This document shows, piece by piece, positions 775 through 40,152 of a DNA stretch of 44,534 bases. The stretch's first letter is position 1. Each line of letters begins with the position of its first letter. The notes below the pieces were generated by a model. It was not told where the DNA came from, searched no databases, and was given only the letters and a program-made list of their open reading frames with translations. A program made the position numbers and the translations under genes. The stretch is taken from the sequence record OZ035807.1; one strand, given 5' to 3'. The DNA is from Vectrevirus LI10P3.

Positions 775-2659
775 AGAATCACAGGCAGAGGCATTAAAGC
801 GGTGGGAAAACCTTAAAGAACTACAAGACACTTTTAAATATACAGCGGAAGGTTTGCTTCTCTTTGCAGATACAGTTATTCATAACTTAATTGCAGGCAA
901 CCCTCATCTGATTCGTATGCAGGCGGATATCTTGAAGTTCCTATTTTACGGACACAAGTACCGCCTCATCGAAGCGCCTCGTGGTATCGCTAAGACAACA
1001 CTATCAGCAATCTATACGGTATTCCGTATTATTCATGAACCGCATAAGCGTATCATGGTTGTGTCCCAAAACGCCAAGCGAGCAGAGGAAATCGCAGGTT
1101 GGGTAGTTAAAATCTTCCGTGGCTTAGACTTTCTTGAGTTTATGCTGCCGGATATCTACGCTGGGGACCGTGCATCAGTTAAGGCGTTTGAGATTCATTA
1201 CACCCTACGTGGTAGTGATAAGTCTCCTTCTGTATCCTGTTACTCAATCGAAGCAGGTATGCAGGGTGCTCGTGCTGATATTATTCTAGCGGATGACGTA
1301 GAGTCGATGCAGAATGCTCGTACGGCAGCGGGCCGTGCCTTGCTTGAGGAGCTGACTAAGGAGTTTGAATCTATCAACCAGTTTGGGGATATCATTTACC
1401 TTGGTACACCTCAGAACGTAAACTCTATCTACAACAACCTACCTGCTCGTGGTTACTCTGTTCGTATCTGGACTGCGCGTTACCCTTCAGTAGAGCAAGA
1501 GCAATGTTATGGCGACTTCCTTGCACCTATGATTGTGCAAGATATGAAGGACAACCCAGCACTTCGCTCAGGGTACGGGTTGGATGGTAATAGTGGTGCA
1601 CCTTGTGCCCCTGAAATGTATGATGATGAAGTCCTGATTGAGAAGGAAATCTCTCAGGGTGCTGCTAAGTTCCAGCTTCAGTTCATGCTTAACACTCGCA
1701 TGATGGATGCTGACAGATACCCATTACGCCTGAACAATCTAATCTTCACCTCGTTTGGTACAGAGGAAGTCCCTGTGATGCCTACGTGGAGTAATGATTC
1801 CATAAACATCATTGGTGATGCACCTAAGTATGGTAACAAGCCTACGGATTTCATGTACAGACCTGTAGCTCGCCCATACGAATGGGGTGCTGTCTCCCGC
1901 AAGATTATGTATATTGACCCTGCGGGTGGTGGTAAGAACGGAGACGAGACGGGTGTAGCCATCGTATTCCTGCACGGCACATTCATTTATGTGTATCAGT
2001 GCTTTGGTGTACCTGGCGGATACCGAGAGTCGTCCCTGAATCGCATTGTGCAGGCCGCAAAGCAGGCGGGTGTTAAAGAGGTATTCATTGAGAAGAACTT
2101 TGGTCATGGCGCGTTTGAGGCGGTAATTAAGCCGTACTTTGAACGAGAGTGGCCTGTAACTCTGGAAGAGGATTACGCCACCGGACAGAAAGAGTTGCGT
2201 ATCATTGAGACGCTGGAGCCGCTCATGGCAGCACATAGGCTTATCTTCAATGCAGAGATGGTGAAGTCAGACTTTGAGTCGGTACAGCACTATCCGCTTG
2301 AACTACGCATGTCCTACAGTCTTTTCAATCAAATGTCGAACATAACGATTGAGAAGAACAGCCTCCGGCACGATGACCGCCTAGACGCCCTGTATGGCGC
2401 TATACGGCAATTAACTTCTCAGATAGACTATGACGAGGTTACACGGATTAATCGCCTCAGAGCGCAGGAGATGCGCGATTACATCCATGCTATGAATACA
2501 CCTCATCTACGCAGGGCAATGCTATATGGAGATTACGGTACTGAGCGAAGAGTGACCAACACTTCCGTAGCGATGCAGCAGCGAGTTTACGGGCAGAACT
2601 ACCGAAATAAATCGGCAAGCAGAAATACACTTTCTGCAAGGATTTCAAGGACTTATTAA
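761..2659 (+). CDS. terminase large subunit (T7 gp19-like)
   Basis: 632 aa from ATG 761 with AAGGAG RBS; Walker-A-like EAPRGIAKTT near N-terminus; size and position conserved. Confidence 0.85.
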   Translation: MAKARESQAEALKRWENLKELQDTFKYTAEGLLLFADTVIHNLIAGNPHLIRMQADILKFLFYGHKYRLIEAPRGIAKTTLSAIYTVFRIIHEPHKRIMVVSQNAKRAEEIAGWVVKIFRGLDFLEFMLPDIYAGDRASVKAFEIHYTLRGSDKSPSVSCYSIEAGMQGARADIILADDVESMQNARTAAGRALLEELTKEFESINQFGDIIYLGTPQNVNSIYNNLPARGYSVRIWTARYPSVEQEQCYGDFLAPMIVQDMKDNPALRSGYGLDGNSGAPCAPEMYDDEVLIEKEISQGAAKFQLQFMLNTRMMDADRYPLRLNNLIFTSFGTEEVPVMPTWSNDSINIIGDAPKYGNKPTDFMYRPVARPYEWGAVSRKIMYIDPAGGGKNGDETGVAIVFLHGTFIYVYQCFGVPGGYRESSLNRIVQAAKQAGVKEVFIEKNFGHGAFEAVIKPYFEREWPVTLEEDYATGQKELRIIETLEPLMAAHRLIFNAEMVKSDFESVQHYPLELRMSYSLFNQMSNITIEKNSLRHDDRLDALYGAIRQLTSQIDYDEVTRINRLRAQEMRDYIHAMNTPHLRRAMLYGDYGTERRVTNTSVAMQQRVYGQNYRNKSASRNTLSARISRTY

Positions 2660-2680
2660 TTACTGGACACTATAGAAGGA
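2655..2680 (+). promoter_or_regulatory. phage RNAP promoter
   Basis: ATTAATTACTGGACACTATAGAAGGA directly after the terminase stop; matches 13-copy consensus. Confidence 0.7.
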
Positions 2681-2816
2681 AGGCCCAGATAATAAGAGAA
2701 AATAATAGGTAATATATAGTTTAACCTAGGTTATATAGGTATGCCTTAGTATGGGTGTACTCCTGTACACCCTATTCCTTACTACCTTACTATATTTACA
2801 TAATAGGAGAGAGACA

Positions 2817-4427: not shown

Positions 4428-6326
4428 ATGGCTAAATTAACCAAACCTAATACTGAAGGAATCTTGCATAAAGGACAATCTTTGTATGAGTACCTTGATG
4501 CGAGAGTTTTAACATCAAAGCCGTTTGGTGCTGTAGGTGACGCCACTACTGATGATACGGAGGTTATAGCTGCTTCATTAAACTCTCAGAAAGCTGTCAC
4601 AATCTCAGACGGTGTATTCTCTAGCTCTGGTATTAATAGTAATTACTGTAACTTAGACGGTAGAGGTAGTGGGGTGCTAAGTCACCGTTCCAGTACAGGT
4701 AATTACTTAGTATTTAACAATCCACGTACAGGTCGCTTAAGTAATATTACGGTAGAAAGTAATAAGGCGACTGATACAACTCAGGGACAGCAGGTATCTC
4801 TTGCCGGTGGAAGTGATGTTACTGTAAGTGACGTTAACTTCTCAAACGTTAAAGGTACTGGTTTCAGTTTAATCGCATACCCTAATGATGCGCCACCTGA
4901 TGGACTTATGATTAAAGGTATTCGAGGTAGCTATTCAGGCTATGCTACTAATAAGGCAGCTGGATGCGTACTTGCTGACTCCTCAGTTAACTCCCTCATA
5001 GATAACGTCATTGCTAAGAACTACCCTCAGTTCGGAGCAGTAGAGTTGAAAGGTACAGCCAGTTACAACATAGTCAGTAATGTTATAGGGACAGATTGCC
5101 AGCATGTAACTTACAACGGCACTGAAGGGCCAATAGCTCCTTCTAATAACCTTATCAAGGGGGTGATGGCTAATAACCCTAAGTATGCAGCGGTTGTTGC
5201 AGGCAAAGGAAGTACGAACTTAATCTCAGACGTGCTAGTAGATTACTCAACTTCTGATGCTAGGCAGGCTCATGGTGTTACCGTAGAAGGGTCTGATAAC
5301 GTCATAAATAATGTGCTTATGTCAGGATGTGATGGTACTAACTCTTTAGGACAAGGGCAGACTGCTACAATTGCACGCTTTATAGGTACAGCTAATAACA
5401 ACTATGCGTCTGTATTCCCTAGCTACAGTGCTACAGGTGTTATTACTTTCGAATCCGGCTCTACCCGTAACTTCGTAGAGGTAAAGCACCCTGGCAGGAG
5501 AAACGACCTTCTCAGTTCTGCTAGTACTATTGACGGTGCAGCTACTATTGACGGCACTAATAATAGTAACGTAGTGCACGCACCTGCCTTAGGGCAGTAC
5601 ATAGGTAGTATGTCAGGTAGGTTCGAATGGCGGATTAAGTCCATGTCACTCCCTTCAGGCGTTCTTACTTCTGCTGATAAGTACAGAATGCTTGGGGATG
5701 GTGCTGTATCATTAGCTGTAGGTGGTGGTACTTCTTCTCAAGTTCGCCTATTTACTTCTGATGGTACTTCTCGGACAGTGGCCCTCACCAACGGTAACGT
5801 GCGTCTTTCTACCAGTAGCACAGGCTATTTGCAGTTAGGTGCTGATGCAATGACCCCAGATAGTACTGGTACATACGCATTAGGTTCCGCCAGTCGAGCA
5901 TGGTCTGGCGGTTTTACTCAAGCAGCATTCACTGTTACCTCAGATGCTCGGTGTAAAACAGAACCTCTTACTATCTCAGATGCCTTACTGGATGCTTGGT
6001 CTGAAGTTGACTTTGTGCAGTTTCAGTATTTGGATCGTGTTGAGGAGAAGGGTGCAGACTCAGCTAGATGGCACTTCGGTATCATCGCTCAGCGAGCTAA
6101 GGAGGCTTTCGAACGTCACGGTATAGATGCACATCGCTATGGCTTCTTGTGCTTCGACAGTTGGGATGATGTATACGAGGAAGATGCCAATGGCTCTCGT
6201 AAACTGATTACACCAGCAGGTTCCCGCTACGGTATTCGTTACGAGGAAGTACTGATATTAGAGGCTGCGTTGATGCGGAGGACTATCAAGCGTATGCAGG
6301 AAGCACTAGCTTCCCTGCCTAAGTGA
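4428..6326 (+). CDS. tailspike 1: beta-helix depolymerase with C-terminal intramolecular chaperone (peptidase S74-like) domain
   Basis: ATG 4428 with GGAGA RBS; N-terminal FGAVGDATTDDTEVIAA is the pectate-lyase-fold signature; C-terminus has SDARCK followed by LDAWSEVDF...WHFGIIAQRAKEAF, as in endosialidase / tail-fibre chaperone domains. Confidence 0.8.
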   Translation: MAKLTKPNTEGILHKGQSLYEYLDARVLTSKPFGAVGDATTDDTEVIAASLNSQKAVTISDGVFSSSGINSNYCNLDGRGSGVLSHRSSTGNYLVFNNPRTGRLSNITVESNKATDTTQGQQVSLAGGSDVTVSDVNFSNVKGTGFSLIAYPNDAPPDGLMIKGIRGSYSGYATNKAAGCVLADSSVNSLIDNVIAKNYPQFGAVELKGTASYNIVSNVIGTDCQHVTYNGTEGPIAPSNNLIKGVMANNPKYAAVVAGKGSTNLISDVLVDYSTSDARQAHGVTVEGSDNVINNVLMSGCDGTNSLGQGQTATIARFIGTANNNYASVFPSYSATGVITFESGSTRNFVEVKHPGRRNDLLSSASTIDGAATIDGTNNSNVVHAPALGQYIGSMSGRFEWRIKSMSLPSGVLTSADKYRMLGDGAVSLAVGGGTSSQVRLFTSDGTSRTVALTNGNVRLSTSSTGYLQLGADAMTPDSTGTYALGSASRAWSGGFTQAAFTVTSDARCKTEPLTISDALLDAWSEVDFVQFQYLDRVEEKGADSARWHFGIIAQRAKEAFERHGIDAHRYGFLCFDSWDDVYEEDANGSRKLITPAGSRYGIRYEEVLILEAALMRRTIKRMQEALASLPK

Positions 6327-6411: not shown

Positions 6412-8124
6412 ATGCTTCAAAGATTAAGTGCTTACTTGGTGAAGTACAAGAGTAAACTAACAGGTACTATTGAGCGCCTGCTATCTGATAAACTATCGGA
6501 TACAATAGATGTTGCGGATTTTGGAGTTACTCCATCTTCCAATGACAACAGGCAAGCACTTCAAGCTGCGTTCAATGCAGTCAGAGTGTTAGGCGGTGGC
6601 ACTGTATTAGTCACTAAAGCTGGCGAATATAAACTCAGTGGTACTGTTGAGATATTTGCTAATACACACTTCAAGGTTGCTAAAGGTGTAACATTTGTAC
6701 GTGACTACGAAACAGGAGATACGCTATTCAGATTATCACAAGGGCAAGCTAGTAATGTAACAGTCAGTGGAGGTATCTATGAAGGCAATGGTCACACTAA
6801 GGGAGATACACCTTTTGTAGTATTTGCATCTACTAGTAATAATGATTTGAAGTTTGAAGGCATAACAGTTAACAATGTAGTGGACTACCACGCCATAGAT
6901 TTAGCAGATTGGAACAACGTAGTTATTCGTGATTGTAAATTCCTAGGTTTTAAGAATACAGGCAGTCGTAACTTCTCAGAGGCTATACAGTTAGACCCAG
7001 GTCTTATTACAGTTGGTCACTATGTACAGTCAAGTGGTATGCTGGTGGAGAATTGCTATGCTGGTCCAAACACAGAATCAGGGTTTGGAGGTTATGGTGC
7101 ACTAATTGGAAATCACGCCTCAGCTTACGGTGTACAGGACAACAATATCCGTATCTTGAATTGCACTACAGATGGTGCTCTCTTTGCAGGTGTACGTGTA
7201 TTTAACTGGAAAAACTGGACAGTGCGTGGTTGCACATTTAGGAACTCTAATGCAAGAGGTGTTCATGTTACACCTGTTTCCTCTCAAACTAAACCGCAAG
7301 GAACTCGACAAGGTAGTATTGTAGATTGTACTTTTGATGGCGTAAGAACACCAGTGCTAATTGCTGCACCATCTTGGCCTTTTACCGATATTAGTGACAT
7401 TTGGCATGACCATATTGAAATTTCTAATAATACTATGATCCTCACAGAGGATGTATCCTATGGTGTAGATGCAAGGTGGTGTAAGAATTTAATTGTAAAA
7501 GGTAATACAGGCTCTGGTGGCTTAGGGTTAATCGGTTTACGCTTTGGGACAAAATACCACATCGAAGGTAATACTTGGGAAAACGGAAGAGGTAGTGGGA
7601 TTTGGTTAGGTGAGTCTGATGCTACTACATTCATTGGTACTGGATTATCGGGCGAAGGTATACTTAGTCGTAATATCCTCTCTAAATTAGGGCAATATGG
7701 TATTCATGTAAACTGCAAGGTTGGCGGTCTAGTGATTAAGGCTAATAATATGAAGGAAGTGTCTACAGCTGAAGCAGGTAGGCGCTTCATTAGCATAGAC
7801 ACAGGAGCTAACAACATCCTAGTAGAAGGTAATATTGGAGTAGATGGAGAAAGCCCTAACAAGCCAAGCCTTGGTATTCGTGTTACTTCTTCTTGTTCCA
7901 ATATTAAACTCATTGGCAATGATTGCTATGGTACACAGGCGCCTCAGAATAACCAAGGAGTCGGTTCTAGTACGGTGATTGTTTATGGACTAAATGGCAA
8001 TCCTACAACTTTAGGCGTAGGTGCACCTGTAGGCTCTTTAGCAACTGATATCAATGGGTCTGGTGGTAGTACATTGTACGTTAAAGAATCTGGTACATCT
8101 GCTCAAGGTTGGGTTGCAAAGTAG
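6412..8124 (+). CDS. tailspike 2: beta-helix depolymerase-like
   Basis: 570 aa, AGAGGAGG RBS; N-terminal VADFGVTPSSNDNRQALQAAFNA pattern typical of pectate-lyase-fold tailspikes; no C-terminal chaperone domain. Confidence 0.75.
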   Translation: MLQRLSAYLVKYKSKLTGTIERLLSDKLSDTIDVADFGVTPSSNDNRQALQAAFNAVRVLGGGTVLVTKAGEYKLSGTVEIFANTHFKVAKGVTFVRDYETGDTLFRLSQGQASNVTVSGGIYEGNGHTKGDTPFVVFASTSNNDLKFEGITVNNVVDYHAIDLADWNNVVIRDCKFLGFKNTGSRNFSEAIQLDPGLITVGHYVQSSGMLVENCYAGPNTESGFGGYGALIGNHASAYGVQDNNIRILNCTTDGALFAGVRVFNWKNWTVRGCTFRNSNARGVHVTPVSSQTKPQGTRQGSIVDCTFDGVRTPVLIAAPSWPFTDISDIWHDHIEISNNTMILTEDVSYGVDARWCKNLIVKGNTGSGGLGLIGLRFGTKYHIEGNTWENGRGSGIWLGESDATTFIGTGLSGEGILSRNILSKLGQYGIHVNCKVGGLVIKANNMKEVSTAEAGRRFISIDTGANNILVEGNIGVDGESPNKPSLGIRVTSSCSNIKLIGNDCYGTQAPQNNQGVGSSTVIVYGLNGNPTTLGVGAPVGSLATDINGSGGSTLYVKESGTSAQGWVAK

Positions 8125-8285: not shown

Positions 8286-9131
8286 GCAGGTTAATATCTT
8301 AGTGTACACAAGGGCAGACCTAGGTTTGCTCTTAGTGTATTTACAATGGAGGTCTTATGTATATACCTATGGAAGCAATAGTAGGTTGCCTATGCTTGTT
8401 GATAGGTTTCGTTATAGGCTTACTAGTAAATCCTTAGTCCTGTACAAGGATTAACCAAAGTCAAAATTTTAATATAGGCGTGTGTGAGGTGTCTCGCCCT
8501 CGCCCTCGCCGGATTTCCCCCATATGGGGCCGCGTTGCGGTTGGCTTGGGAATTGGGCTGGGCTGGTCCGTCTTCGACGGGTGGGCCGAGGTCTGCCGAG
8601 GCTTGCTCTTAGTGGGAGCACAAGGAGAACGCCTAGGAAGCGCTAGGGCACGCCTTAGTATTGGACAAGGTGATTGCCTTAGTGAAGCCTCTTAGTGCAT
8701 TCCTGAGGTCATTCAGGGCGCTTATGAGGGATTGACAGGGTGGATGGGCGTGGGCTATCTGTTCGTTTCGTTCACTCCGCTTGCGCTACGTTCACTCGCT
8801 CACGTGTACCTTAGGTTATTCCTTGATGGATAGCTTAGGTTAGCCTTAGTGGATTACCTTAGTTAAAGCCTTAGTGCTTCACTTAGTATCAGCTTAGTAG
8901 TGTACCTTAGTAAGTATTAGTGTCTTCTCTTAGTGATTGCACATGCAAGCATGTAAGATGCCATTAGGTCGCGGTCGGTAGACCGCTAAAGAAGGAGAAT
9001 AGTAATAAGATGCAGTAGGAGGAACACCAGAAACCTAGCCAACCTAGCCTATCCTAGCTCTGTATCTATTGCTTTTCCTTAGTCTAACATGTGAGACAAC
9101 CTAGATTTATCTTAGTGATGATATCTTAGTG

Positions 9132-9160
9132 TTGACAAGGCCATCTCAATATAATACTAT
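9132..9160 (+). promoter_or_regulatory. candidate host sigma70 early promoter
   Basis: TTGACA - 17 bp - TACTAT read directly. Confidence 0.4.
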
Positions 9161-10454: not shown

Positions 10455-10568
10455 ATGGAAAAGCTATACAACTTCATCTTTTCAGACGGTGTAACCCTGA
10501 AGTGTTCCCTGCGTTTCGCACAAATTCGTGAGGAAGTACTAGGCACTACATACAAACTATTTAGCTGA
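10455..10568 (+). CDS. hypothetical small protein
   Basis: 37-aa ORF with GAGGAA RBS immediately after ocr. Confidence 0.25.
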   Translation: MEKLYNFIFSDGVTLKCSLRFAQIREEVLGTTYKLFS

Positions 10569-10584
10569 CACTATAAGAGAAGGC
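10564..10584 (+). promoter_or_regulatory. degenerate phage promoter-like sequence
   Basis: AGCTGACACTATAAGAGAAGG; core has GA/AG transposition (TATAAGAG vs TATAGAAG). Confidence 0.2.
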
Positions 10585-11922: not shown

Positions 11923-14550
11923 ATGCAAGACTTACACGCTATTCAACTTCAACTTGAAGAAGAAATGTTTAACGGCGGTATCCGTCGCTTTGAAGCGGAC
12001 CAACAGCGCCAGATTGCATCCGGTAATGAATCAGACACGGCATGGAATCGCCGCTTATTGTCCGAGTTAATTGCGCCAATGGCTGAAGGTATTCAGGCAT
12101 ACAAGGAAGAGTATGAAGGCAAGCGCGGTCGTGCACCACGTGCATTGGCTTTCATTAACTGCGTAGAAAATGAAGTGGCAGCGTATATCACGATGAAGAT
12201 CGTAATGGATATGCTTAACACTGATGTAACCTTGCAAGCTATCGCTATGAATGTAGCTGACCGCATCGAAGACCAAGTGCGCTTCAGTAAACTAGAAGGC
12301 CATGCAGCTAAATATTTTGAGAAGGTCAAGAAGTCACTTAAGGCAAGTAAGACTAAATCATATCGCCATGCGCACAACGTAGCGGTCGTGGCTGAGAAGT
12401 CAGTAGCTGACCGTGACGCTGATTTCTCCCGCTGGGAGGCATGGCCTAAAGACACCTTGCTGCAAATTGGGATGACCTTGCTTGAAATCTTAGAGAATAG
12501 CGTATTCTTCAACGGGCAACCTGTCTTCCTCCGCACCTTGCGCACTAATGGCGGCAAACATGGTGTTTACTACCTACAGACTAGTGAACACGTAGGTGAG
12601 TGGATAACTGCATTTAAAGAACATGTAGCGCAACTTAGTCCAGCCTATGCACCTTGCGTTATTCCTCCGCGTCCGTGGGTATCACCCTTTAACGGTGGGT
12701 TTCATACTGAGAAAGTAGCAAGCCGTATTCGTCTGGTAAAAGGCAATCGTGAGCACGTCCGCAAGCTGACCAAAAAGCAAATGCCAGCGGTTTACAAGGC
12801 TGTTAACGCTTTGCAGGCGACTAAGTGGCAGGTTAATAAAGAGGTTTTACAGGTTGTGGAGGACGTTATACGTCTAGACCTCGGCTATGGTGTACCTTCC
12901 TTTAAACCACTCATCGACCGTGAGAACAAGCCAGCTAATCCGGTGCCGTTAGAGTTCCAGCACCTGCGAGGCCGTGAACTGAAAGAAATGCTTACGCCGG
13001 AACAATGGCAAGCCTTTATCAACTGGAAAGGTGAATGTACTAAGCTGTACACCGCTGAAACTAAGCGCGGAAGCAAATCGGCGGCAACCGTTCGCATGGT
13101 TGGTCAGGCCCGTAAATATAGCCAGTTCGACGCAATCTACTTCGTGTATGCACTGGACAGCCGCAGCCGTGTATACGCGCAATCTAGCACACTCTCACCG
13201 CAATCAAATGACTTGGGCAAGGCCTTGCTCCGTTTTACCGAAGGGCAGCGTCTTGATAGCGCTGAGGCGCTTAAGTGGTTTTTGGTGAACGGGGCTAATA
13301 ACTGGGGTTGGGATAAGAAAACTTTTGACGTGCGCACTGCTAACGTGCTGGATAGTGAATTTCAAGACATGTGCCGCGACATTGCAGCGGATCCGCTGAC
13401 CTTCACTCAATGGGTAAATGCCGACTCCCCTTACGGCTTCCTTGCATGGTGCTTTGAATATGCGCGTTATCTGGATGCACTGGATGAAGGCACGCAAGAC
13501 CAATTCATGACGCACCTCCCAGTCCATCAAGATGGTAGTTGTTCTGGTATCCAGCACTACAGTGCTATGCTACGCGATGCAGTAGGTGCGAAAGCAGTAA
13601 ACCTTAAGCCCTCTGACTCTCCTCAAGATATTTATGGTGCCGTTGCGCAGGTAGTAATTCAGAAGAATTATGCATACATGAATGCAGAGGATGCGGAAAC
13701 CTTCACTTCTGGCAGCGTGACTTTAACAGGTGCGGAGCTGCGTAGTATGGCTAGTGCGTGGGATATGATAGGAATCACTCGCGGCCTGACCAAAAAGCCC
13801 GTAATGACACTACCTTATGGCAGCACACGTCTAACCTGCCGTGAGTCAGTGATTGATTATATCGTTGATTTAGAAGAAAAAGAGGCCCAACGGGCTATTG
13901 CGGAAGGGCGTACCGCCAATCCTGTACACCCTTTTGATAATGACCGTAAGGACAGCCTGACACCTAGCGCAGCTTATAACTATATGACAGCTTTAATCTG
14001 GCCTTCTATTTCGGAAGTGGTTAAAGCTCCTATAGTGGCAATGAAAATGATTCGTCAGCTTGCACGTTTCGCAGCTAAAAGGAATGAAGGCTTAGAGTAC
14101 ACCTTGCCTACTGGCTTCATCTTGCAACAAAAGATAATGGCGACAGATATGCTCCGCGTATCTACTTGCTTGATGGGAGAAATCAAGATGAGTCTACAGA
14201 TTGAAACGGACGTAGTGGATGAAACGGCTATGATGGGCGCTGCTGCCCCTAACTTTGTGCACGGTCATGATGCCAGTCACCTTATCTTAACGGTCTGCGA
14301 CCTTGTTGATAAAGGGATTACATCTATCGCAGTAATTCATGATTCTTTTGGCACTCATGCAGGTCGCACCGCAGACCTACGTGATAGTCTAAGGGCAGAA
14401 ATGGTGAAGATGTATCAAGGCCGTAATGCCCTGCAAAGCCTGTTAGATGAGCATGAAGAACGCTGGTTAGTAGACACCGGAATCCAAGTGCCAGAGCAAG
14501 GAGAGTTTGACCTTAACGAAATCTTAGTATCTGACTATTGCTTCGCATAA
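11923..14550 (+). CDS. single-subunit DNA-dependent RNA polymerase (SP6-type)
   Basis: 875 aa; N-terminus [30 protein letters not shown] and motifs [34 protein letters not shown] match the SP6 RNAP family as I recall it; C-terminal ...DYCFA. Confidence 0.95.
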
Positions 14551-14558
14551 TATTAATA

Positions 14559-14590
14559 GGCCATTCCTTCGGGAGTGGCCTTTCTTTTAC
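14559..14590 (+). terminator. early terminator hairpin after RNAP gene
   Basis: AGGCCATTCC-TTCG-GGAGTGGCCT stem-loop (one G-U pair) followed by TTTCTTTT. Confidence 0.55.
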
Positions 14591-14639
14591 CTACTACCGG
14601 TAACATTTCATTAACATAAAGTGTCTCACATGTGAGACT

Positions 14640-14664
14640 TATTTACCGGACACTATAGGATAGC
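14640..14664 (+). promoter_or_regulatory. phage RNAP promoter variant
   Basis: TATTTACCGGACACTATAGGATAG. Confidence 0.5.
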
Positions 14665-14825
14665 CGTCGGAGACGGGAAAGAAAAGGGAAGATAAAGGAT
14701 ATAAAAGGAAGTAATAGGTATTAAAGGCTATATAGGTTATCTAGGAATACCTATTACCTTCTTCCTTCCTCTTATTACTACTTAGAGGAAGGGCAGATCT
14801 AGGTTGTCTCACATGTGAGACTTCG

Positions 14826-14849
14826 TATTTACCGGACAGTATAGATAAG
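14826..14849 (+). promoter_or_regulatory. phage RNAP promoter variant
   Basis: TATTTACCGGACAGTATAGATAAG (two core substitutions). Confidence 0.4.
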
Positions 14850-14874
14850 ACTAACTTACTTTGGAGATTTAACC

Positions 14875-15003
14875 ATGCGTAACTTTGAGAAGATGACCCG
14901 TAAAGCTAACCGTTTTGACATGGAAGAAGGGCAGAAGAAAGGCAAGAAGCTGAATAAACCTGTCCGTGACCGTGCATCTAAACGCGCTGCGTGGGAGTTC
15001 TAA
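14875..15003 (+). CDS. T7 gp1.1-like small basic protein
   Basis: 42 aa MRNFEKMTRKANRF...KKLNKPVRDRASKRAAWEF resembles T7 gene 1.1 product as I recall it; GGAGA RBS. Confidence 0.5.
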   Translation: MRNFEKMTRKANRFDMEEGQKKGKKLNKPVRDRASKRAAWEF

Positions 15004-15006
15004 GTT

Positions 15007-16995
15007 ATGGCTATTATTCAGAATGTACCGTGTCCTGCTTGCCAAAAGAATGGACATGATATTACTGGCAACCATCTTATGATATTTGAGGATGGCGCTG
15101 GTTACTGTAACCGTGGTCACTTCCATGATAATGGGAAGCCTTATTACCATAAGCCAGAGGGTGGCATCGAGATAACCGAGTTACCTATTACTGGCAATAT
15201 CAAATATACACCTTCTCAATTCAAAGAAATGGAGAAGGAAGGGAAGATAAGCGACCCTAAGCTACGCGCCATCGCTCTTGGTGGTATGCGTATGAAAGAC
15301 CGTTGGGAGGTCATGAATGAGCAAGAAAGGGCAGACCAAGAAGCAGAGTGGAAACTTGATGTTGAATGGTTCCTCACGCTTAAGCGTAAGAACCTTGTAT
15401 CCCGTCACATTCGAGGTGACATCGCAGCAATGTACGATGTGCGCGTTGGACACGATGAAGAGGGAAGAGTCAACCGTCACTATTATCCACGATATGAAAA
15501 GGGTGTGCTTGTTGGGGCAAAATGCCGGACGTTGCCGAAGGATTTTAAGTTCGGACACCTAGGTAAACTCTTTGGTATGCAAGATCTTTTCGGTATGAAC
15601 ACTTTGTCTCACGTGTTAGACAAGGGGAGACGAAAGGATTGCTTGCTTATTGTAGGCGGTGAACTTGATGCACTAGCAGCGCAGCAGATGCTCCTTGATT
15701 CTGCCAAGGGTACTAAGTGGGAAGGCCAGCCATACCATGTATGGTCTGTCAACAAAGGCGAGTCTTGTCTTGAAGAGATAGTGCAAAACCGTGAGCATAT
15801 CGCCCAATTCAAGAAGATTATATGGGGTTTTGATGGAGATGAGGTAGGGCAGAAGCAGAATCAGCAAGCGGCTCGCCTGTTTCCTGGCAAATCCTATATC
15901 CTTGAATACCCCTCTGGTTGCAAAGATGCTAACAAGGCATTGATGGCTGGCAAGGCCAAAGAGTTTGTTGATGCATGGTTTAATGCCAAGTCATCTGATG
16001 AAGTCTTTGGTAGCCAGATTAAATCTATCGCCTCTCAAAGGGATAAGCTCAAGGCTGCACGTCCAGAGCAAGGACTATCATGGCCTTGGCCTAAGCTGAA
16101 CAAGGTAACGCTAGGTATTCGTAAGAACCAACTTATCATTGTAGGCGCAGGCTCTGGTGTAGGTAAGACTGAGTTCCTTCGTGAAGTAGTTAAGCACCTC
16201 ATTGAAGAACACGGTGAATCTGTAGGCATCATTTCTACAGAAGACCCGATGGTCAAGGTGTCCCGTGCTTTTATCGGCAAGTGGGTTGATAAGCGTATTG
16301 AGTTACCGCCAACCAACGACCCGAAAGAAGATGGATACCGTGAGGTGTTCGACTACACCGAGGAAGAGGCTAACGCCGCCATTGATTATGTAGCTGATAC
16401 AGGTAAGCTGTTTGTAGCTGACCTAGAGGGTGACTATTCGATGGAAAAGGTAGAGCAAACTTGCCTAGAGTTTGAGGCTATGGGCATTTCTAATATCATC
16501 ATTGATAACTTAACGGGGATTAAATTAGATGAGCGTGCTTTTGGTGGGAAGGTTGGTGCACTTGATGAATGCGTCAAGCGGATTGGTACTATCAAAGACC
16601 GACACCCGGTTACTATATTCCTTGTATCACACCTTACACGTCCTCCGGCAAACCGTACCCAACACGAAGAAGGTGGCGAAGTTATCCTTTCTGACTTCCG
16701 AGGCTCAGGCGCTATCGGATTCTGGGCATCTTACGCCTTGGGGATTGAGCGTAATACAAGAGCTGAAACGCTTGACGAAAGGACTACCACGTACATCTCA
16801 TGTGTCAAAGACCGCGACCAAGGTATCTACACTGGAACCAAGGTCATGCTTAAGGGTGACATTCAAACCGGACGTTTAATGGAACCACAAGCCCGTACTA
16901 AGTCATTTGATACAGGTGAAGCAAGGCAACAAGAAGTGCCGGATTTACCGGACACTATAGAAGAGACAACCTTTGACGATGAACAGGAGTTTTAA
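15007..16995 (+). CDS. DNA primase/helicase (T7 gp4-like)
   Basis: 662 aa; N-terminal zinc ribbon CPACQ...C..GH; Walker A GAGSGVGKTEF; DnaB-like C-terminal half. Confidence 0.9.
   Translation: MAIIQNVPCPACQKNGHDITGNHLMIFEDGAGYCNRGHFHDNGKPYYHKPEGGIEITELPITGNIKYTPSQFKEMEKEGKISDPKLRAIALGGMRMKDRWEVMNEQERADQEAEWKLDVEWFLTLKRKNLVSRHIRGDIAAMYDVRVGHDEEGRVNRHYYPRYEKGVLVGAKCRTLPKDFKFGHLGKLFGMQDLFGMNTLSHVLDKGRRKDCLLIVGGELDALAAQQMLLDSAKGTKWEGQPYHVWSVNKGESCLEEIVQNREHIAQFKKIIWGFDGDEVGQKQNQQAARLFPGKSYILEYPSGCKDANKALMAGKAKEFVDAWFNAKSSDEVFGSQIKSIASQRDKLKAARPEQGLSWPWPKLNKVTLGIRKNQLIIVGAGSGVGKTEFLREVVKHLIEEHGESVGIISTEDPMVKVSRAFIGKWVDKRIELPPTNDPKEDGYREVFDYTEEEANAAIDYVADTGKLFVADLEGDYSMEKVEQTCLEFEAMGISNIIIDNLTGIKLDERAFGGKVGALDECVKRIGTIKDRHPVTIFLVSHLTRPPANRTQHEEGGEVILSDFRGSGAIGFWASYALGIERNTRAETLDERTTTYISCVKDRDQGIYTGTKVMLKGDIQTGRLMEPQARTKSFDTGEARQQEVPDLPDTIEETTFDDEQEF
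16943..16965 (+). promoter_or_regulatory. phage RNAP promoter (inside 3' end of helicase gene)
   Basis: ATTTACCGGACACTATAGAAGAG. Confidence 0.6.
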
Positions 16996-17156: not shown

Positions 17157-17228
17157 TGTATTTATCAGGGCTTGTCTCACATGTGAGACAGGCTCTTATT
17201 AAGTACATTAAATAACTGGAGATTGATT

Positions 17229-21492: not shown

Positions 21493-21518
21493 ATTTACTG
21501 GACACTATAGAAGGAAAG
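21493..21518 (+). promoter_or_regulatory. phage RNAP promoter
   Basis: ATTTACTGGACACTATAGAAGGAAAG. Confidence 0.7.
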
Positions 21519-21579
21519 CCTAGACAATCTAGGTTTATAAGGTAGTATAGGTAATTAAGTAAATATAGGAGATATAAAC

Positions 21580-21957
21580 ATGTCTATGGTAACTACTCTG
21601 GTATTTGTAGCTCAATACTTTCGTGGTCTGGCTAATAAGTTCAAGTCCAAGGCTATCAAAGCTATTGAGTCTCGCATCGAGGCAGTACAGGCAGAGCAAG
21701 TTAAAGTTGAAGAACATCGTAGTTCTAAAATGATTGACTGCCATAACCGCTACTATGCATCTCGTGATGACCTTAATGCACGCCAAGTCAAAGAGGTTGA
21801 AGAGATGCTGGCACGTCACCAGCAAGAGCGCGACAGTCTGAAAGCTGAATTTGAAGAGAACAAGGCATCCATCGCCCTTGTACATCAAGCCGCATCTGAC
21901 AGCCTGAAGAAAGAGATTGTTATGCTTGAAATTGAGTTAGACAACCTGACCAAATAA
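21580..21957 (+). CDS. hypothetical coiled-coil protein
   Basis: 125 aa, RBS ATAGGAGA; heptad-like K/E-rich sequence. Confidence 0.55.
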   Translation: MSMVTTLVFVAQYFRGLANKFKSKAIKAIESRIEAVQAEQVKVEEHRSSKMIDCHNRYYASRDDLNARQVKEVEEMLARHQQERDSLKAEFEENKASIALVHQAASDSLKKEIVMLEIELDNLTK

Positions 21958-37204: not shown

Positions 37205-40152
37205 TGGCAATTGAGCGACAAGCAGTACAAGGTCTGCCACAAGTGCAGGCCACTTCTCCTAATGTCATGACCTTTGCACCTCAGCGAGTTGGAGGTGTGG
37301 AGGCTGGCGTAGCTTCTACCTCCGGTAGTCGATTTATCGAAGACCTTATTCGAGCAGCCAGTAGTGTAGCTGATGTAACCACTGGTATCCTTAATCAAAA
37401 GATTGAGGAAGATAAGGTTGTTCAAATGGAGCGGGCATATAACGGATTAATGCCTTCTGAGGATGCAACTCGTGGTGGCGCTCGTGCTAACATGCTTGTC
37501 AAAGCTCAACTGCTAGCTAATGATGAAGCAGCACGAATGAAAGACATGGCTACTCGTTTCCAAGGAACGGATGACGAGTGGACACAACTTATGGTTAATT
37601 CTCGTAATGAGATGCAGAATAAGCTGTTCCAGCAATACCCTGAGTTGCAAGGTGACAAAGATACTATGCGTATGGTCACTAATGTCTTCCAAGAACAGCA
37701 GCCTCAGATTTGGGCGACACGAACCCAGCATAAACTTGACCGTGAACAAGCAGACCGTGAGGATACCTTTGACGGGCGAGTGGCTTCTACTTGGGATTCT
37801 AATATTGACCCTGAAGCATCTGGCTATGCTTTACAGGAACGAATCCGCGAAGGTCTTACTCAAGGATTACTACCTGAACAGATGCACAAGAAGTTAGTCC
37901 AGCGAGCAATTTCACTTGCACAAGGCGGTGATGTTAGCATGGCTGAAGCCCTGAAGTATGTGAAGGACGATAAGGGTGTTTCTGTTTATGCTAAGAATCC
38001 ACAGCTTATCACAGCCATCACTAGTGGTAATGCAGTTTGGGCTAGGAATAATGTAGCTGATGTAACTCGTATGTCTTTCGAAGTTAAAGAATCCTACCTT
38101 GCAGGGGATTTAACTGATGAAGAATTGTTGGAACGAGCACAGCACATTAATAATCTGACAGGTAACTCTGTCTTCTCTAATCCAGAGCTAGAGGTACTGA
38201 TGCGCCAACGGGCTAAGCAGAATGCAGAGCTAGGTGCAATGCAGGATATGCGACGTGAGCTTTACTCCGACCGCCTGACTGGCTTCCAAGGTAAGACTGA
38301 TAAAGAGAAGAAGGCTTACATTGATGTTATCAAACAGGATAGCCAACTTTATGCAGACCAGCAAATCAAACAACGTGGCTTGGACCCTTATAGTCAAGAG
38401 GCTGAAGCTATTCGTGGTGCAGTGGAAGTGCAGCGCCTACAATTCATGAACTCCAAAGGCTTAGTGGATGATACCTTTGAGTCTCGTATCAAAGCCATGG
38501 AATCTATGCTATCTCCTGAGCACTTTGCCAAGGGCGAACCACAAGAGTTGATGACTATTCGCCAGTTGTGGGAACAGTTGCCAGAAGAGGGCCGAGGTGT
38601 CTTTGGTGACACGGTGAATGGCTACATGGATAACTACAACACTGCACTACAAATGGGAGAGACACCTTTGCAGTCTGCAAGGTTTGCGCGTGAAGCACAG
38701 CAGAAATTCTCTCGTACTGAGAAGGAAACCAAGAAGTTCAACTCAGCTATTGGAGATGCACTGGATGAGGTATCTGGTGCTGGCTGGTTCGATGGTAAAA
38801 CCGAAGTGTCAGACTTAGGTAAAGCTATTGCAGAAGAGGAGTTACGAGCTAAGGCTAATATGCTGTGGTCTAGTGGTATGCGTAACATGGATTCCATCAA
38901 GAAGGCTTTAATTACTTGGGGCAATAAACGCTACACTCAAACAGAGGATGCAAAGACTTCCGGTGGCTATTTCATTAAAGGTGATTACACTTCTGCATCT
39001 GATATGCTTATGTCAGTTGGGAAAGGCGTAAATCCTACCGATGTACCTCTGGCGCTTGGTAGGTATGTAGAAACACAGATGCCAGAATTGAAGAAGGAGC
39101 TTCAAGAGTGGGAAACTAAAGATGATATATACATTGATTACAATGAACAGAAAGGTACTTTCGTGATTCGTGCTGGTGCAGCAGGTCGCCCTCTTTCTGG
39201 AGTAATCCCTGTAACCTCTTTAGATACCACTTCACTACTAGATTCTGCCTATCAGAAGAAAGTAGAGGAACGAGATAAAGGCGAGTATGTTCACCCTTAT
39301 CGTACAGATATTGGTGCACAAGAGCCTATGCCAGCTAAACCAACTGCCAAAGATATTGGTAAATTTGGACTAGCTAACTTCCTCATGTCTTCTGCTTTTG
39401 CTTCTGGTGAGAATCTGCCTTCTAACTTCGAGATTAACTATCGAGGTAATATGCAACAATTCTATGACAAGCTAGCTATGGATGAGAATAAAGATAAAGT
39501 TGGCTTTAATAAGGCAACTGGAACCTTTACTCCATATAAAGATGCTCACGGTGAGTCTATCGGTTACGGTCATTTCTTAACGGAAGAAGAGAAGCGAAAC
39601 GGGTATATTAAGATTGGTGATGAACTAGTTCCCTATCGAGGGTCTATGTCTCAGCTTACAGAGAGCAAGGCTCGCGCTCTTATGGAGCAAGATGCCAAGA
39701 AGCATGTGCCTCCTACTCGTGACTGGAAGATTCCGTTTGACCAGATGCATCCTGCACAGCAACGTGGCTTGATGGATTTAACCTACAATTTAGGTAAAGG
39801 TGGAATCCAGAACTCACCGCGTGCTCTTGCTGCATTCAAAGCTGGTAAGCTTACGGAAGGCTTTATCGAAATGCTGGGCACTGCATCAAGTGAAGGTAAG
39901 CGTATCCCTGGTCTACTGAAGCGACGCGCTGAGGCATACAATATGGCATCTGCTGGTGGTGTGCCTAAGATTACCGAAGTGGAGACTCGTGAAGATGGCT
40001 CCATGTGGGTTAGGTTTGGTGGACCTATGCCAACAGGTTCTGTCTCGGCATGGACTCATAAACGTATTGGCGCGGATGGTTGGTATCAGGTTTATGAGGC
40101 TGCACCTACCAAGTTAGCTAAAGGTTCTAAGGTAGGTAAATTTAAGTTGTAG
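37204..40152 (+). CDS. internal virion protein with C-terminal lysozyme-like domain
   Basis: 982 aa; C-terminal TPYKDAHGESIGYGHFLT resembles the T4-lysozyme YKDTEGYYTIGIGH block; GLLKRRAEAYNM further downstream. Confidence 0.65.
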   Translation: MAIERQAVQGLPQVQATSPNVMTFAPQRVGGVEAGVASTSGSRFIEDLIRAASSVADVTTGILNQKIEEDKVVQMERAYNGLMPSEDATRGGARANMLVKAQLLANDEAARMKDMATRFQGTDDEWTQLMVNSRNEMQNKLFQQYPELQGDKDTMRMVTNVFQEQQPQIWATRTQHKLDREQADREDTFDGRVASTWDSNIDPEASGYALQERIREGLTQGLLPEQMHKKLVQRAISLAQGGDVSMAEALKYVKDDKGVSVYAKNPQLITAITSGNAVWARNNVADVTRMSFEVKESYLAGDLTDEELLERAQHINNLTGNSVFSNPELEVLMRQRAKQNAELGAMQDMRRELYSDRLTGFQGKTDKEKKAYIDVIKQDSQLYADQQIKQRGLDPYSQEAEAIRGAVEVQRLQFMNSKGLVDDTFESRIKAMESMLSPEHFAKGEPQELMTIRQLWEQLPEEGRGVFGDTVNGYMDNYNTALQMGETPLQSARFAREAQQKFSRTEKETKKFNSAIGDALDEVSGAGWFDGKTEVSDLGKAIAEEELRAKANMLWSSGMRNMDSIKKALITWGNKRYTQTEDAKTSGGYFIKGDYTSASDMLMSVGKGVNPTDVPLALGRYVETQMPELKKELQEWETKDDIYIDYNEQKGTFVIRAGAAGRPLSGVIPVTSLDTTSLLDSAYQKKVEERDKGEYVHPYRTDIGAQEPMPAKPTAKDIGKFGLANFLMSSAFASGENLPSNFEINYRGNMQQFYDKLAMDENKDKVGFNKATGTFTPYKDAHGESIGYGHFLTEEEKRNGYIKIGDELVPYRGSMSQLTESKARALMEQDAKKHVPPTRDWKIPFDQMHPAQQRGLMDLTYNLGKGGIQNSPRALAAFKAGKLTEGFIEMLGTASSEGKRIPGLLKRRAEAYNMASAGGVPKITEVETREDGSMWVRFGGPMPTGSVSAWTHKRIGADGWYQVYEAAPTKLAKGSKVGKFKL

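Follow-up and report, generated by a model that had tools for sequence, protein, structure and literature searches.

The primary origins of replication of phage T7 are located at two promoters, phi1.1A and phi1.1B, and every T7 origin needs a T7 promoter (PMC8373140). The two promoters occur at positions 5848 and 5923 of the T7 genome, in the interval between gene 1 and gene 1.1. We compared this arrangement with the corresponding region of the coliphage genome Vectrevirus LI10P3 (sequence record OZ035807.1), a stretch of 44,534 bases which was analysed over its whole length and is called here the window. The region in question is a short non-coding interval bordered by the gene for the phage RNA polymerase and by a small gene, gp8, which a preliminary description had singled out as a candidate primary origin. 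The comparison demonstrates that the middle transcription unit, the one holding the replication genes, begins with this conserved interval, which has two tandem phage promoters (P1 and P2) and a structured leader under selection. It is plausible by analogy with T7, although we stop just short of calling it probable, that the region also acts as a transcription-primed replication origin of the T7 kind. The positions of the features are collected in Table 1.

Table 1. Location of the features discussed, in coordinates of the window (nt, nucleotides; aa, amino acids; ORF, open reading frame; a dot in the strand column marks a palindrome).
Feature	Position	Strand	Description and basis
Promoter P1	14641-14658	+	ATTTACCGGACACTATAG, from -17 to +1, start G 14658; 0 mismatches to the 18-nt promoter motif of the window
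Promoter P2	14827-14844	+	ATTTACCGGACAGTATAG, start G 14844; 1 mismatch, C to G at -5
Mini-hairpin	14664-14676	+	CCGTC-GGA-GACGG, +7 to +19 of the P1 transcript; RNAalifold
AGG array	14683-14751	+	7 units WWAGGNWWW; AGG at 14685, 14696, 14706, 14716, 14725, 14734 and 14743 (9-11-nt steps)
Inverted repeat/hairpin	14705-14763	+	18-nt arms 14705-14722 and 14746-14763, 89% complementary, 23 nt between
Second short hairpin	14764-14792	+	CCTTCCTCT ... AGAGGAAGG, followed by conserved GGAAGGGCAGAYCTAGGTT; folding
Palindrome copy 1	14623-14638	.	Exact GTCTCACATGTGAGAC, ends 2 nt upstream of P1; motif scan
Palindrome copy 2	14806-14821	.	Exact GTCTCACATGTGAGAC, ends 5 nt upstream of P2; motif scan
ArcA-type box	14601-14615	-	GTTAATGAAATGTTA, near-consensus, two TGTTA direct repeats 11 bp apart; 14/15 to GTTAATTAAATGTTA
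Intrinsic terminator	14558-14590	+	10-bp stem 14558-14581, TTCG loop, T-rich tail; terminator scan
RNA polymerase gene (left flank)	11923-14550	+	Phage single-subunit enzyme, 875 aa; ORF list, annotated as RNA polymerase in the relatives K1-5, K1E and SP6
gp8 (right flank)	14875-15003	+	42-aa homologue of T7 gp1.1; tblastn
Primase/helicase gene	15007-16995	+	Contains a degenerate palindrome copy at 15606-15621; ORF list, annotation of relatives
Paralogous leader module after the terminase gene	2658-2816	+	Promoter 2658-2675, purine-rich period-10 repeats 2687-2719, GC hairpin 2753-2772
Third leader	21493-21582	+	4-5 TAGGTA-type units, in phase into a true ribosome-binding site (TAGGAG) and ATG

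The window holds a whole genome in circularly permuted form, that of a K1-5/K1E-like coliphage (Vectrevirus, Molineuxvirinae, SP6 supergroup), and dozens of Vectrevirus genomes were 93-99% identical to it over the segment 14300-15300. Phage K1-5 has a 234-bp terminal repeat, which maps onto the window at approximately 8494-8757, which places the physical left end at about position 8494. This direct terminal repeat is present in a single copy, and the window is therefore a permuted assembly. Counted from the left end, the promoter interval is located at 6.1-6.4 kb, or about 14% of the genome. The protein encoded by gp8 is 56% identical to that of T7 gene 1.1 (tblastn, E = 2e-4). Because it is situated between the RNA polymerase gene and the gp1.1 homologue, approximately 14% from the left end, the interval can be recognized by its gene order as the positional counterpart of the T7 phi1.1A - R1.1 - phi1.1B region. 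The correspondence of position with the T7 primary origin, claimed in the preliminary description, was thus recovered: the flanking genes are the same and the relative map position (approximately 14-15%) is shared.

Twelve sites with the promoter motif are present in the window, all on the + strand, where 0.03 would be expected by chance. P1 and P2, which had been announced near 14640 and 14826, are judged by this motif to be rightward promoters for the phage RNA polymerase, and their starts are 186 nt apart. Both were kept in the four genera compared. The P1 transcript begins with GGA and not with the usual GAAG, in which it is alone among the promoters. P2, which looks the weaker of the two, was off-consensus in every genus, each time in one of two ways: Vectrevirus and Acadevirus have a G at -5, Zindervirus (SP6) and Ulipvirus (Klebsiella) a T at -1 (TATTGA, A to T). 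The P2 transcript begins with GATAAG, and the segment from its start to the ATG of gp8 measures 31 nt with 30% GC. Two sub-types of promoters could be distinguished at positions -12/-11, ATTTACCGG near the replication genes (14641, 14827, 16943) and ATTTACTGG elsewhere (4326, 21493, 23187, 31980). A conserved weak promoter variant ending in TATAA was also observed ahead of the genes situated before the RNA polymerase gene (window 10559-10576, SP6 2104-2121, ULIP33 2579-2596); among the phage-type promoters, this one would enter the cell first.

The non-coding interval aligned end to end, with about 70% identity, with Zindervirus (SP6-type phages of Salmonella) and Ulipvirus (phages of Klebsiella). 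The same architecture was found in the Acadevirus phages of Proteus, and the module thus recurs in four genera. Over the aligned columns the identity was 73% with SP6 and 69% with the Klebsiella phage ULIP33, whereas in the polymerase and primase genes on either side the third codon positions were 47-62% identical in the same comparisons. The interval is more conserved than these positions and is therefore under purifying selection. The order of its elements is also conserved, with the terminator, a block of about 27 nt, a palindrome, P1, a mini-hairpin, an array of AGG units, a pyrimidine-rich arm, a second palindrome (not in Proteus), P2, a short leader and gp8. Three relatives carry a rearranged interval. 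In the Salmonella phage PST_H2 (534-975 of its sequence), a decayed HNH endonuclease ORF starts in the array and P2 is displaced by about 430 bp. A third promoter with its own palindrome is present in SE29 (620-720 of its sequence), and an HNH gene was inserted after P2 in the Proteus phage PM93 (486-899 of its sequence). P1, the mini-hairpin and the array are intact in all three. On the + strand, 14551-14874 contains no ORF of at least 30 aa, and the public records of the relatives have no promoter or origin annotated in this interval.

The AT-rich segment with an inverted repeat that had been reported between the promoters is indeed there. Over 50-100 nt starting from about 14678-14689, the GC content falls to 26-30%, which corresponds to the lowest 0.3-0.5% of segments in a genome of 44.9% GC. 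At a length of 100 nt, the tract has 30% GC and belongs to the lowest 0.3% of segments. It begins about 20 nt after the P1 start, and was also found in K1-5, SP6 and ULIP33. Approximately eight other spots of the genome are as AT-rich or more so, and the whole P1-to-P2 interval has 39.6% GC; the AT-richness of the interval is real but moderate. Purine richness is the stronger compositional signal. The 50 nt just past the P1 start are 88% purine on the transcribed-sense strand, the genome-wide maximum; the same maximum was found in K1-5, and a value near the maximum in ULIP33.

The mini-hairpin was examined with RNAalifold on 17 sequences from the four genera. None of its five pairs was broken and the GGA loop was invariant, while the third pair was GC in 13 sequences, AU in three and UA in one, corresponding to two kinds of double change. 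A hairpin with the same stem, CCGTC-TTC-GACGG (CCGTCTTCGACGG), is present in the terminal repeat at 8568-8580. It is conserved in K1-5 and absent from the repeats of SP6 and ULIP33, and a link with the mini-hairpin of P1 was dropped, the hairpin of the terminal repeat being found in Vectrevirus only.

Beyond the mini-hairpin, the AT-rich tract is a periodic array of units of about 9.5 nt with a consensus of roughly ATAGGTAAT. Its onset is about 28 nt past the P1 start in all four genera, with six to eight units in each, and the copy number differs by whole units in KAW1A and K44PH129. In none of 200 shuffles of each genome did a chain of AGG at 9-11-nt steps reach even six units, as compared to the seven observed. 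Motifs for CsrA (GGA), CpxR (GTAAA-N5-GTAAA), IHF and DnaA were looked for in the array by eye, and none was kept between genera, only AGG. Minus-strand matches to the array motif at the left end of the genome were spurious and came from a different repeat, of the CTTAG type.

Arrays of at least five AGG units were found solely downstream of phage promoters, always in the sense orientation, three per genome. The module that follows the terminase gene continues with a CCT-rich arm, a ribosome-binding site and an ATG (2817), and its counterparts are located at 37773-37920 in SP6 and 39502-39686 in ULIP33, with seven to eight AGG units at steps of about 10 nt. In the third leader the units are spaced by 9 nt or multiples of it; the counterparts are at about 12580-12670 in K1-5, 12542-12615 in SP6 and 13022 in ULIP33. 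Because the arrays also follow these two other promoters, and one of them runs into a real ribosome-binding site, they point to a role in the transcript, or just to a preferred type of AT-rich leader, rather than to origin-specific iterons.

An iteron-type origin, in which direct and inverted repeats of 9-11 bp would bind an initiator or a host factor opening the duplex independently of transcription, appears on these grounds very improbable. It would account for the direct repeats at about one helical turn with inverted copies in an AT-rich tract, for the changes of copy number by whole units, and for an adjoining box that resembles the site of ArcA, a DNA-binding regulator of the host. The invariable location of the arrays behind phage promoters, in the sense orientation and at three places per genome, one of them leading into a ribosome-binding site, is not specific to an origin. 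In addition, the annotated gene tables of the relatives contain no initiator-like gene, no homology search having been run for one, and T7-type replication is not known to need such an initiator.

Purine-rich sequences resembling ribosome-binding sites act as 5' stabilisers of mRNA in the leaders of the Bacillus phage SP82 and of cryIIIA. The AGG arrays resemble them as purine-rich, ribosome-binding-site-like leader motifs near 5' ends, behind strong promoters. They differ in having four to eight units at a regular step of 9-11 nt, sometimes with a complementary pyrimidine arm, and in belonging to enterobacterial phages. It is possible, if somewhat doubtful in our estimation, that the whole region is an expression module and nothing else. 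P1 and P2 would be the first middle promoters, and replication would start elsewhere, or at several promoters without preference. The mini-hairpin, the AGG array with its pyrimidine arm and the palindromes would work at the RNA level, in 5'-end protection, as ribosome-holding or message-stabilising sequences that resemble ribosome-binding sites, and as processing or partial-termination hairpins. The presence of AGG arrays after three promoters in every genus examined, one of them in phase with a true ribosome-binding site and start codon, fits this explanation, and so do the compensatory changes in the mini-hairpin and in the palindrome described below, which are typical of base-paired RNA. 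A module devoted to expression does not explain why the leader is so far from a start codon, since the array is separated from the ribosome-binding site of gp8 by about 130 nt and by a second promoter, and PST_H2 tolerates its 430-bp insertion between the array and gp8. The conserved ArcA-like box is also left unaccounted for.

The inverted repeat overlaps the array, and its 3' arm is a run of inverted units, rich in pyrimidines. As RNA, the region folded with z = -2.0 to -2.4, and each of the four genera folded into a comparable hairpin with a purine arm and a pyrimidine arm (z = -2.4 to -2.6). RNAalifold did not recover this long hairpin as a consensus structure from the 17 sequences, which leaves the folding within each genus, at z of about -2.5, as its sole support; an alignable consensus is missing because the arms, being built of repeats, shift register between genera. 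Next to it, the second short hairpin has a comparable one in SP6, in a sequence block common to Vectrevirus and Zindervirus. With 17-18 bp and the neighbouring 9-bp hairpin, the structure between P1 and P2 has a size like that of known RNase III sites, without their bipartite form.

As stated in the preliminary description, an exact palindrome copy precedes each of the two promoters. The palindrome turned out to be dispersed. With at most three mismatches, eight sites were found in the window as compared to 0.22 expected, at 9082 (near the left end), 14623 (before P1), 14806 (before P2), 15606 (inside the primase/helicase coding sequence), 17174 and 18318 (ahead of two small genes that come before the DNA polymerase gene), 23156 (before another promoter) and 40170 (between two internal-virion-protein genes). 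The family has eight to ten sites per genome, syntenic in K1-5, SP6 and ULIP33. The position of copy 1 is also syntenic in the Proteus phages, whereas copy 2 is absent there. No mention of the palindrome was found in searches of the literature.

The variants of the palindrome retain the dyad (GTCTCAC/GTGAGAC, GTCCAAC/GTTGGAC, GTCTAAC/GTTAGAC), and in the RNAalifold analysis its stem pairs switched between U-A, C-G and U-G and between A-U and C-G. In the copy contained in the primase/helicase gene, synonymous positions covary (TCC/TTG, TCT/TTA). Six palindromes of SP6 hold a T·G on the + strand, that is a G·U wobble in the mRNA, which again favours an expression module. The palindrome is best read as an RNA hairpin. 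At 17174, 18318 and 40170 it caps bipartite hairpins in which a small internal loop separates an upper stem of 13 bp from a lower one of 11 bp, with z = -7.9, -5.8 and -3.6, 25-45 nt before start codons. Substrates of RNase III span two helical turns, and internal loops restrict their cleavage (PMC1540722). The predicted fold of the three hairpins matches this description. Like R1.1 and the other RNase III sites of T7, they are bipartite, extend over about two helical turns, contain an internal loop and occupy intergenic positions before genes, which fits the processing hairpins of an expression module. The hairpin between P1 and P2 differs from these T7 sites, with an 18-bp stem, a 23-nt loop and no palindrome cap. 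The palindromes beside P1 and P2 lack such an extended stem (z about 0), and appeared in the terminator scan as weak sites with a hairpin and a T-tail.

This last observation bears on another explanation, according to which P1 yields a separate non-coding RNA of approximately 165-180 nt, extending from the mini-hairpin to palindrome 2 with its U-rich tail and acting in trans; its six to eight AGG motifs could for example soak up a host RNA-binding protein or ribosomal subunits. The shape is fitting: the RNA would open with a stem-loop, continue with a body rich in repeats and close with a hairpin, after which comes TTCGTATTT, terminator-like in the scan. The region is conserved in four genera and devoid of ORF, and P2, directly downstream, would then supply the mRNA. 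We regard such an RNA as distinctly improbable. No U run directly follows the SP6 palindrome and the Proteus phages are without palindrome 2, which makes it doubtful that the 3' end is conserved. A search of Rfam with 14400-15100 at a permissive threshold gave chance-level matches only, and thus no family. The GGA motifs of CsrA type are not kept between genera, only AGG, and the similar arrays found elsewhere are plain 5' leaders of genes.

The left-end palindrome copy adjoins a segment, at 8800-9140, of dense short repeats of the CTTAG(T/G) type, located between the terminal repeat and the early promoters. They consist of a 24-nt unit repeated 2.9 times at 8807-8876 and of a 9-10-nt unit at 9032-9058. 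The terminal repeat itself ends with GGGCTATCTGTT, an ending shared by K1-5 and SP6. It resembles ATCTGTT, the pause/termination signal of the T7 polymerase at the concatemer junction.

Upstream of palindrome 1, the interval starts with an intrinsic terminator. Its stem shows covariation between genera in the alignment (GGCCATTCC/GGAGTGGCC, GGGCCAGCC/GGTTGGCC, GGGAGGC/GCCTCCC), and the terminator is annotated as such in phages KAW1A4500 and PM93. It probably ends early transcription by the host polymerase. Between the terminator and palindrome 1, three genera have the block of about 27 nt in almost the same form. A scan of 14400-15000 revealed no sigma-70 promoter, and the conserved block is therefore not an obvious host promoter. 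It contains the ArcA-like box, 43-57 bp upstream of the P1 start. The consensus of the classical 15-bp ArcA site is GTTAATTAAATGTTA (PMC4173790). The match to it was 14/15 in the window, 15/15 in SP6 (6076-6090) and 13/15 in ULIP33 (6532-6546), at the orthologous spot, and in each of the three genomes this was the sole match with at most two mismatches. The box is absent in the Proteus relatives. Its two TGTTA repeats, 11 bp apart within a 15-bp site, make it by sequence a candidate ArcA operator; it shares with the operators of ArcA-P an ATGTTA in both repeats, and it differs from them in residing in a phage genome, on the strand opposite to the phage-polymerase promoter P1.

These elements could be combined into a host-sensing switch to replication in the SP6-group gut phages, in which a conserved ArcA-P site, the operator of the anaerobic response regulator, would lie beside the first middle promoter or origin and adjust transcription-primed initiation to how much oxygen the host experiences. 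The palindrome and the AGG arrays would then be two kinds of transcript-level signal not described before, each common to at least four genera. We consider this proposal unlikely. If it were true, a common factor would recognise the 16-nt palindrome as a hairpin of specific sequence, and the AGG arrays would be multi-unit leaders of the ribosome-binding-site type.

We propose the following sequence of events for a T7-like origin in this interval. The phage RNA polymerase would start at P1 and transcribe into the AT-rich, purine-rich tract. The RNA would stay paired with the template strand as an RNA-DNA hybrid, because purine-rich RNA on pyrimidine-rich DNA makes a stable hybrid. The phage DNA polymerase would extend it rightward, and the primase/helicase would load on the displaced strand and prime the leftward fork. 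The same region would serve gene expression and the start of replication. This is what the T7 interval does, and the evidence for an expression module is in this sense compatible with an origin. An origin is favoured by the map position and the flanking genes, by the match of P1 and P2 to the phage motif, by the AT-rich and purine-rich tract behind P1, by the conservation of the module in four genera, and by the survival of P1, mini-hairpin and array in the three rearranged relatives. The replication genes agree with it as well: the annotated primase/helicase and DNA polymerase of the relatives are counterparts of the T7 replication proteins, by annotated function only. The primase of SP6 probably recognizes 5'-GCA-3'; one GCA is found at 14793-14795, a 3-nt motif being too short for statistics.

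In T7, the order is a promoter, a bipartite hairpin (z = -3.2), a promoter and then, after phi1.1B, an 84-nt AT-rich tract (28.6% GC). The hairpin, located between phi1.1A and phi1.1B, is presumably the RNase III site R1.1; that T7 too has a bipartite hairpin between its two promoters is again in line with an expression module. In both phages the interval has a tandem pair of phage promoters directed rightward, a promoter followed by an AT-rich tract, and a stable hairpin. The promoter starts are 186 nt apart here versus 75 nt in T7. The two 16-bp palindromes, the mini-hairpin, the AGG array and the ArcA-like box are all missing from the T7 sequence, and an intrinsic terminator is situated here directly before the module. 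Origin function is proven in T7, and here it is putative.

Several observations weigh against an origin at this place. The AT-rich array and the hairpin lie between the promoters and not after both, so that the layout announced in the preliminary description holds for the tandem promoters and for the AT-rich tract following P1, and fails for the placement of the tract. The cumulative GC, AT, purine and keto skews, calculated for the re-linearised genome as well as for K1-5, SP6 and ULIP33, rose monotonically, with a positive GC skew, as expected when all genes are on one strand, and they carry no information on an origin. At four-fold degenerate sites, the detrended skews had no consistent turning point or step near 6 kb. 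The T-A minima were at about 11 kb, inside the DNA polymerase gene, in three genomes and not in SP6, and the G-C minima were scattered: gene-specific codon usage dominates these skews. Dobbins et al. 2004, as cited in a later article (PMC4837284), suggested a bidirectional origin around the DNA polymerase gene of SP6. Searches of the literature returned no statement on an SP6-group origin beyond this secondary citation. AGG arrays and AT-rich leaders follow other promoters too, and palindromes occur throughout the genome; what seems special about this place is therefore made of generic elements of the transcript level. Several other promoters have equally AT-rich leaders, and any of them could therefore be the preferred start. 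From the earlier argument for a primary origin, the position, the promoters and the AT-rich tract after P1 are retained, whereas the palindrome and the inverted repeat add no weight because they are generic in these genomes.

An origin in this interval would be related to that of T7, as one would expect, and differ from it by a rearranged layout. Less expected is the set of conserved non-coding elements without a described function, which comprises the hairpin at the 5' end of the P1 transcript, the arrays of AGG units, the dispersed palindrome and the box resembling an ArcA site. Phages of the K1-5, K1E and SP6 types are used as therapeutic and engineering chassis, and the SP6 polymerase and promoters are standard tools. 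The origin of the SP6 group is unmapped as far as the searchable literature shows, and if the module is this origin, engineers would learn what to leave undisturbed. A T7-like origin here would also provide a second natural example of initiation primed by an RNA polymerase, which could be compared with T7 and mitochondrial DNA.

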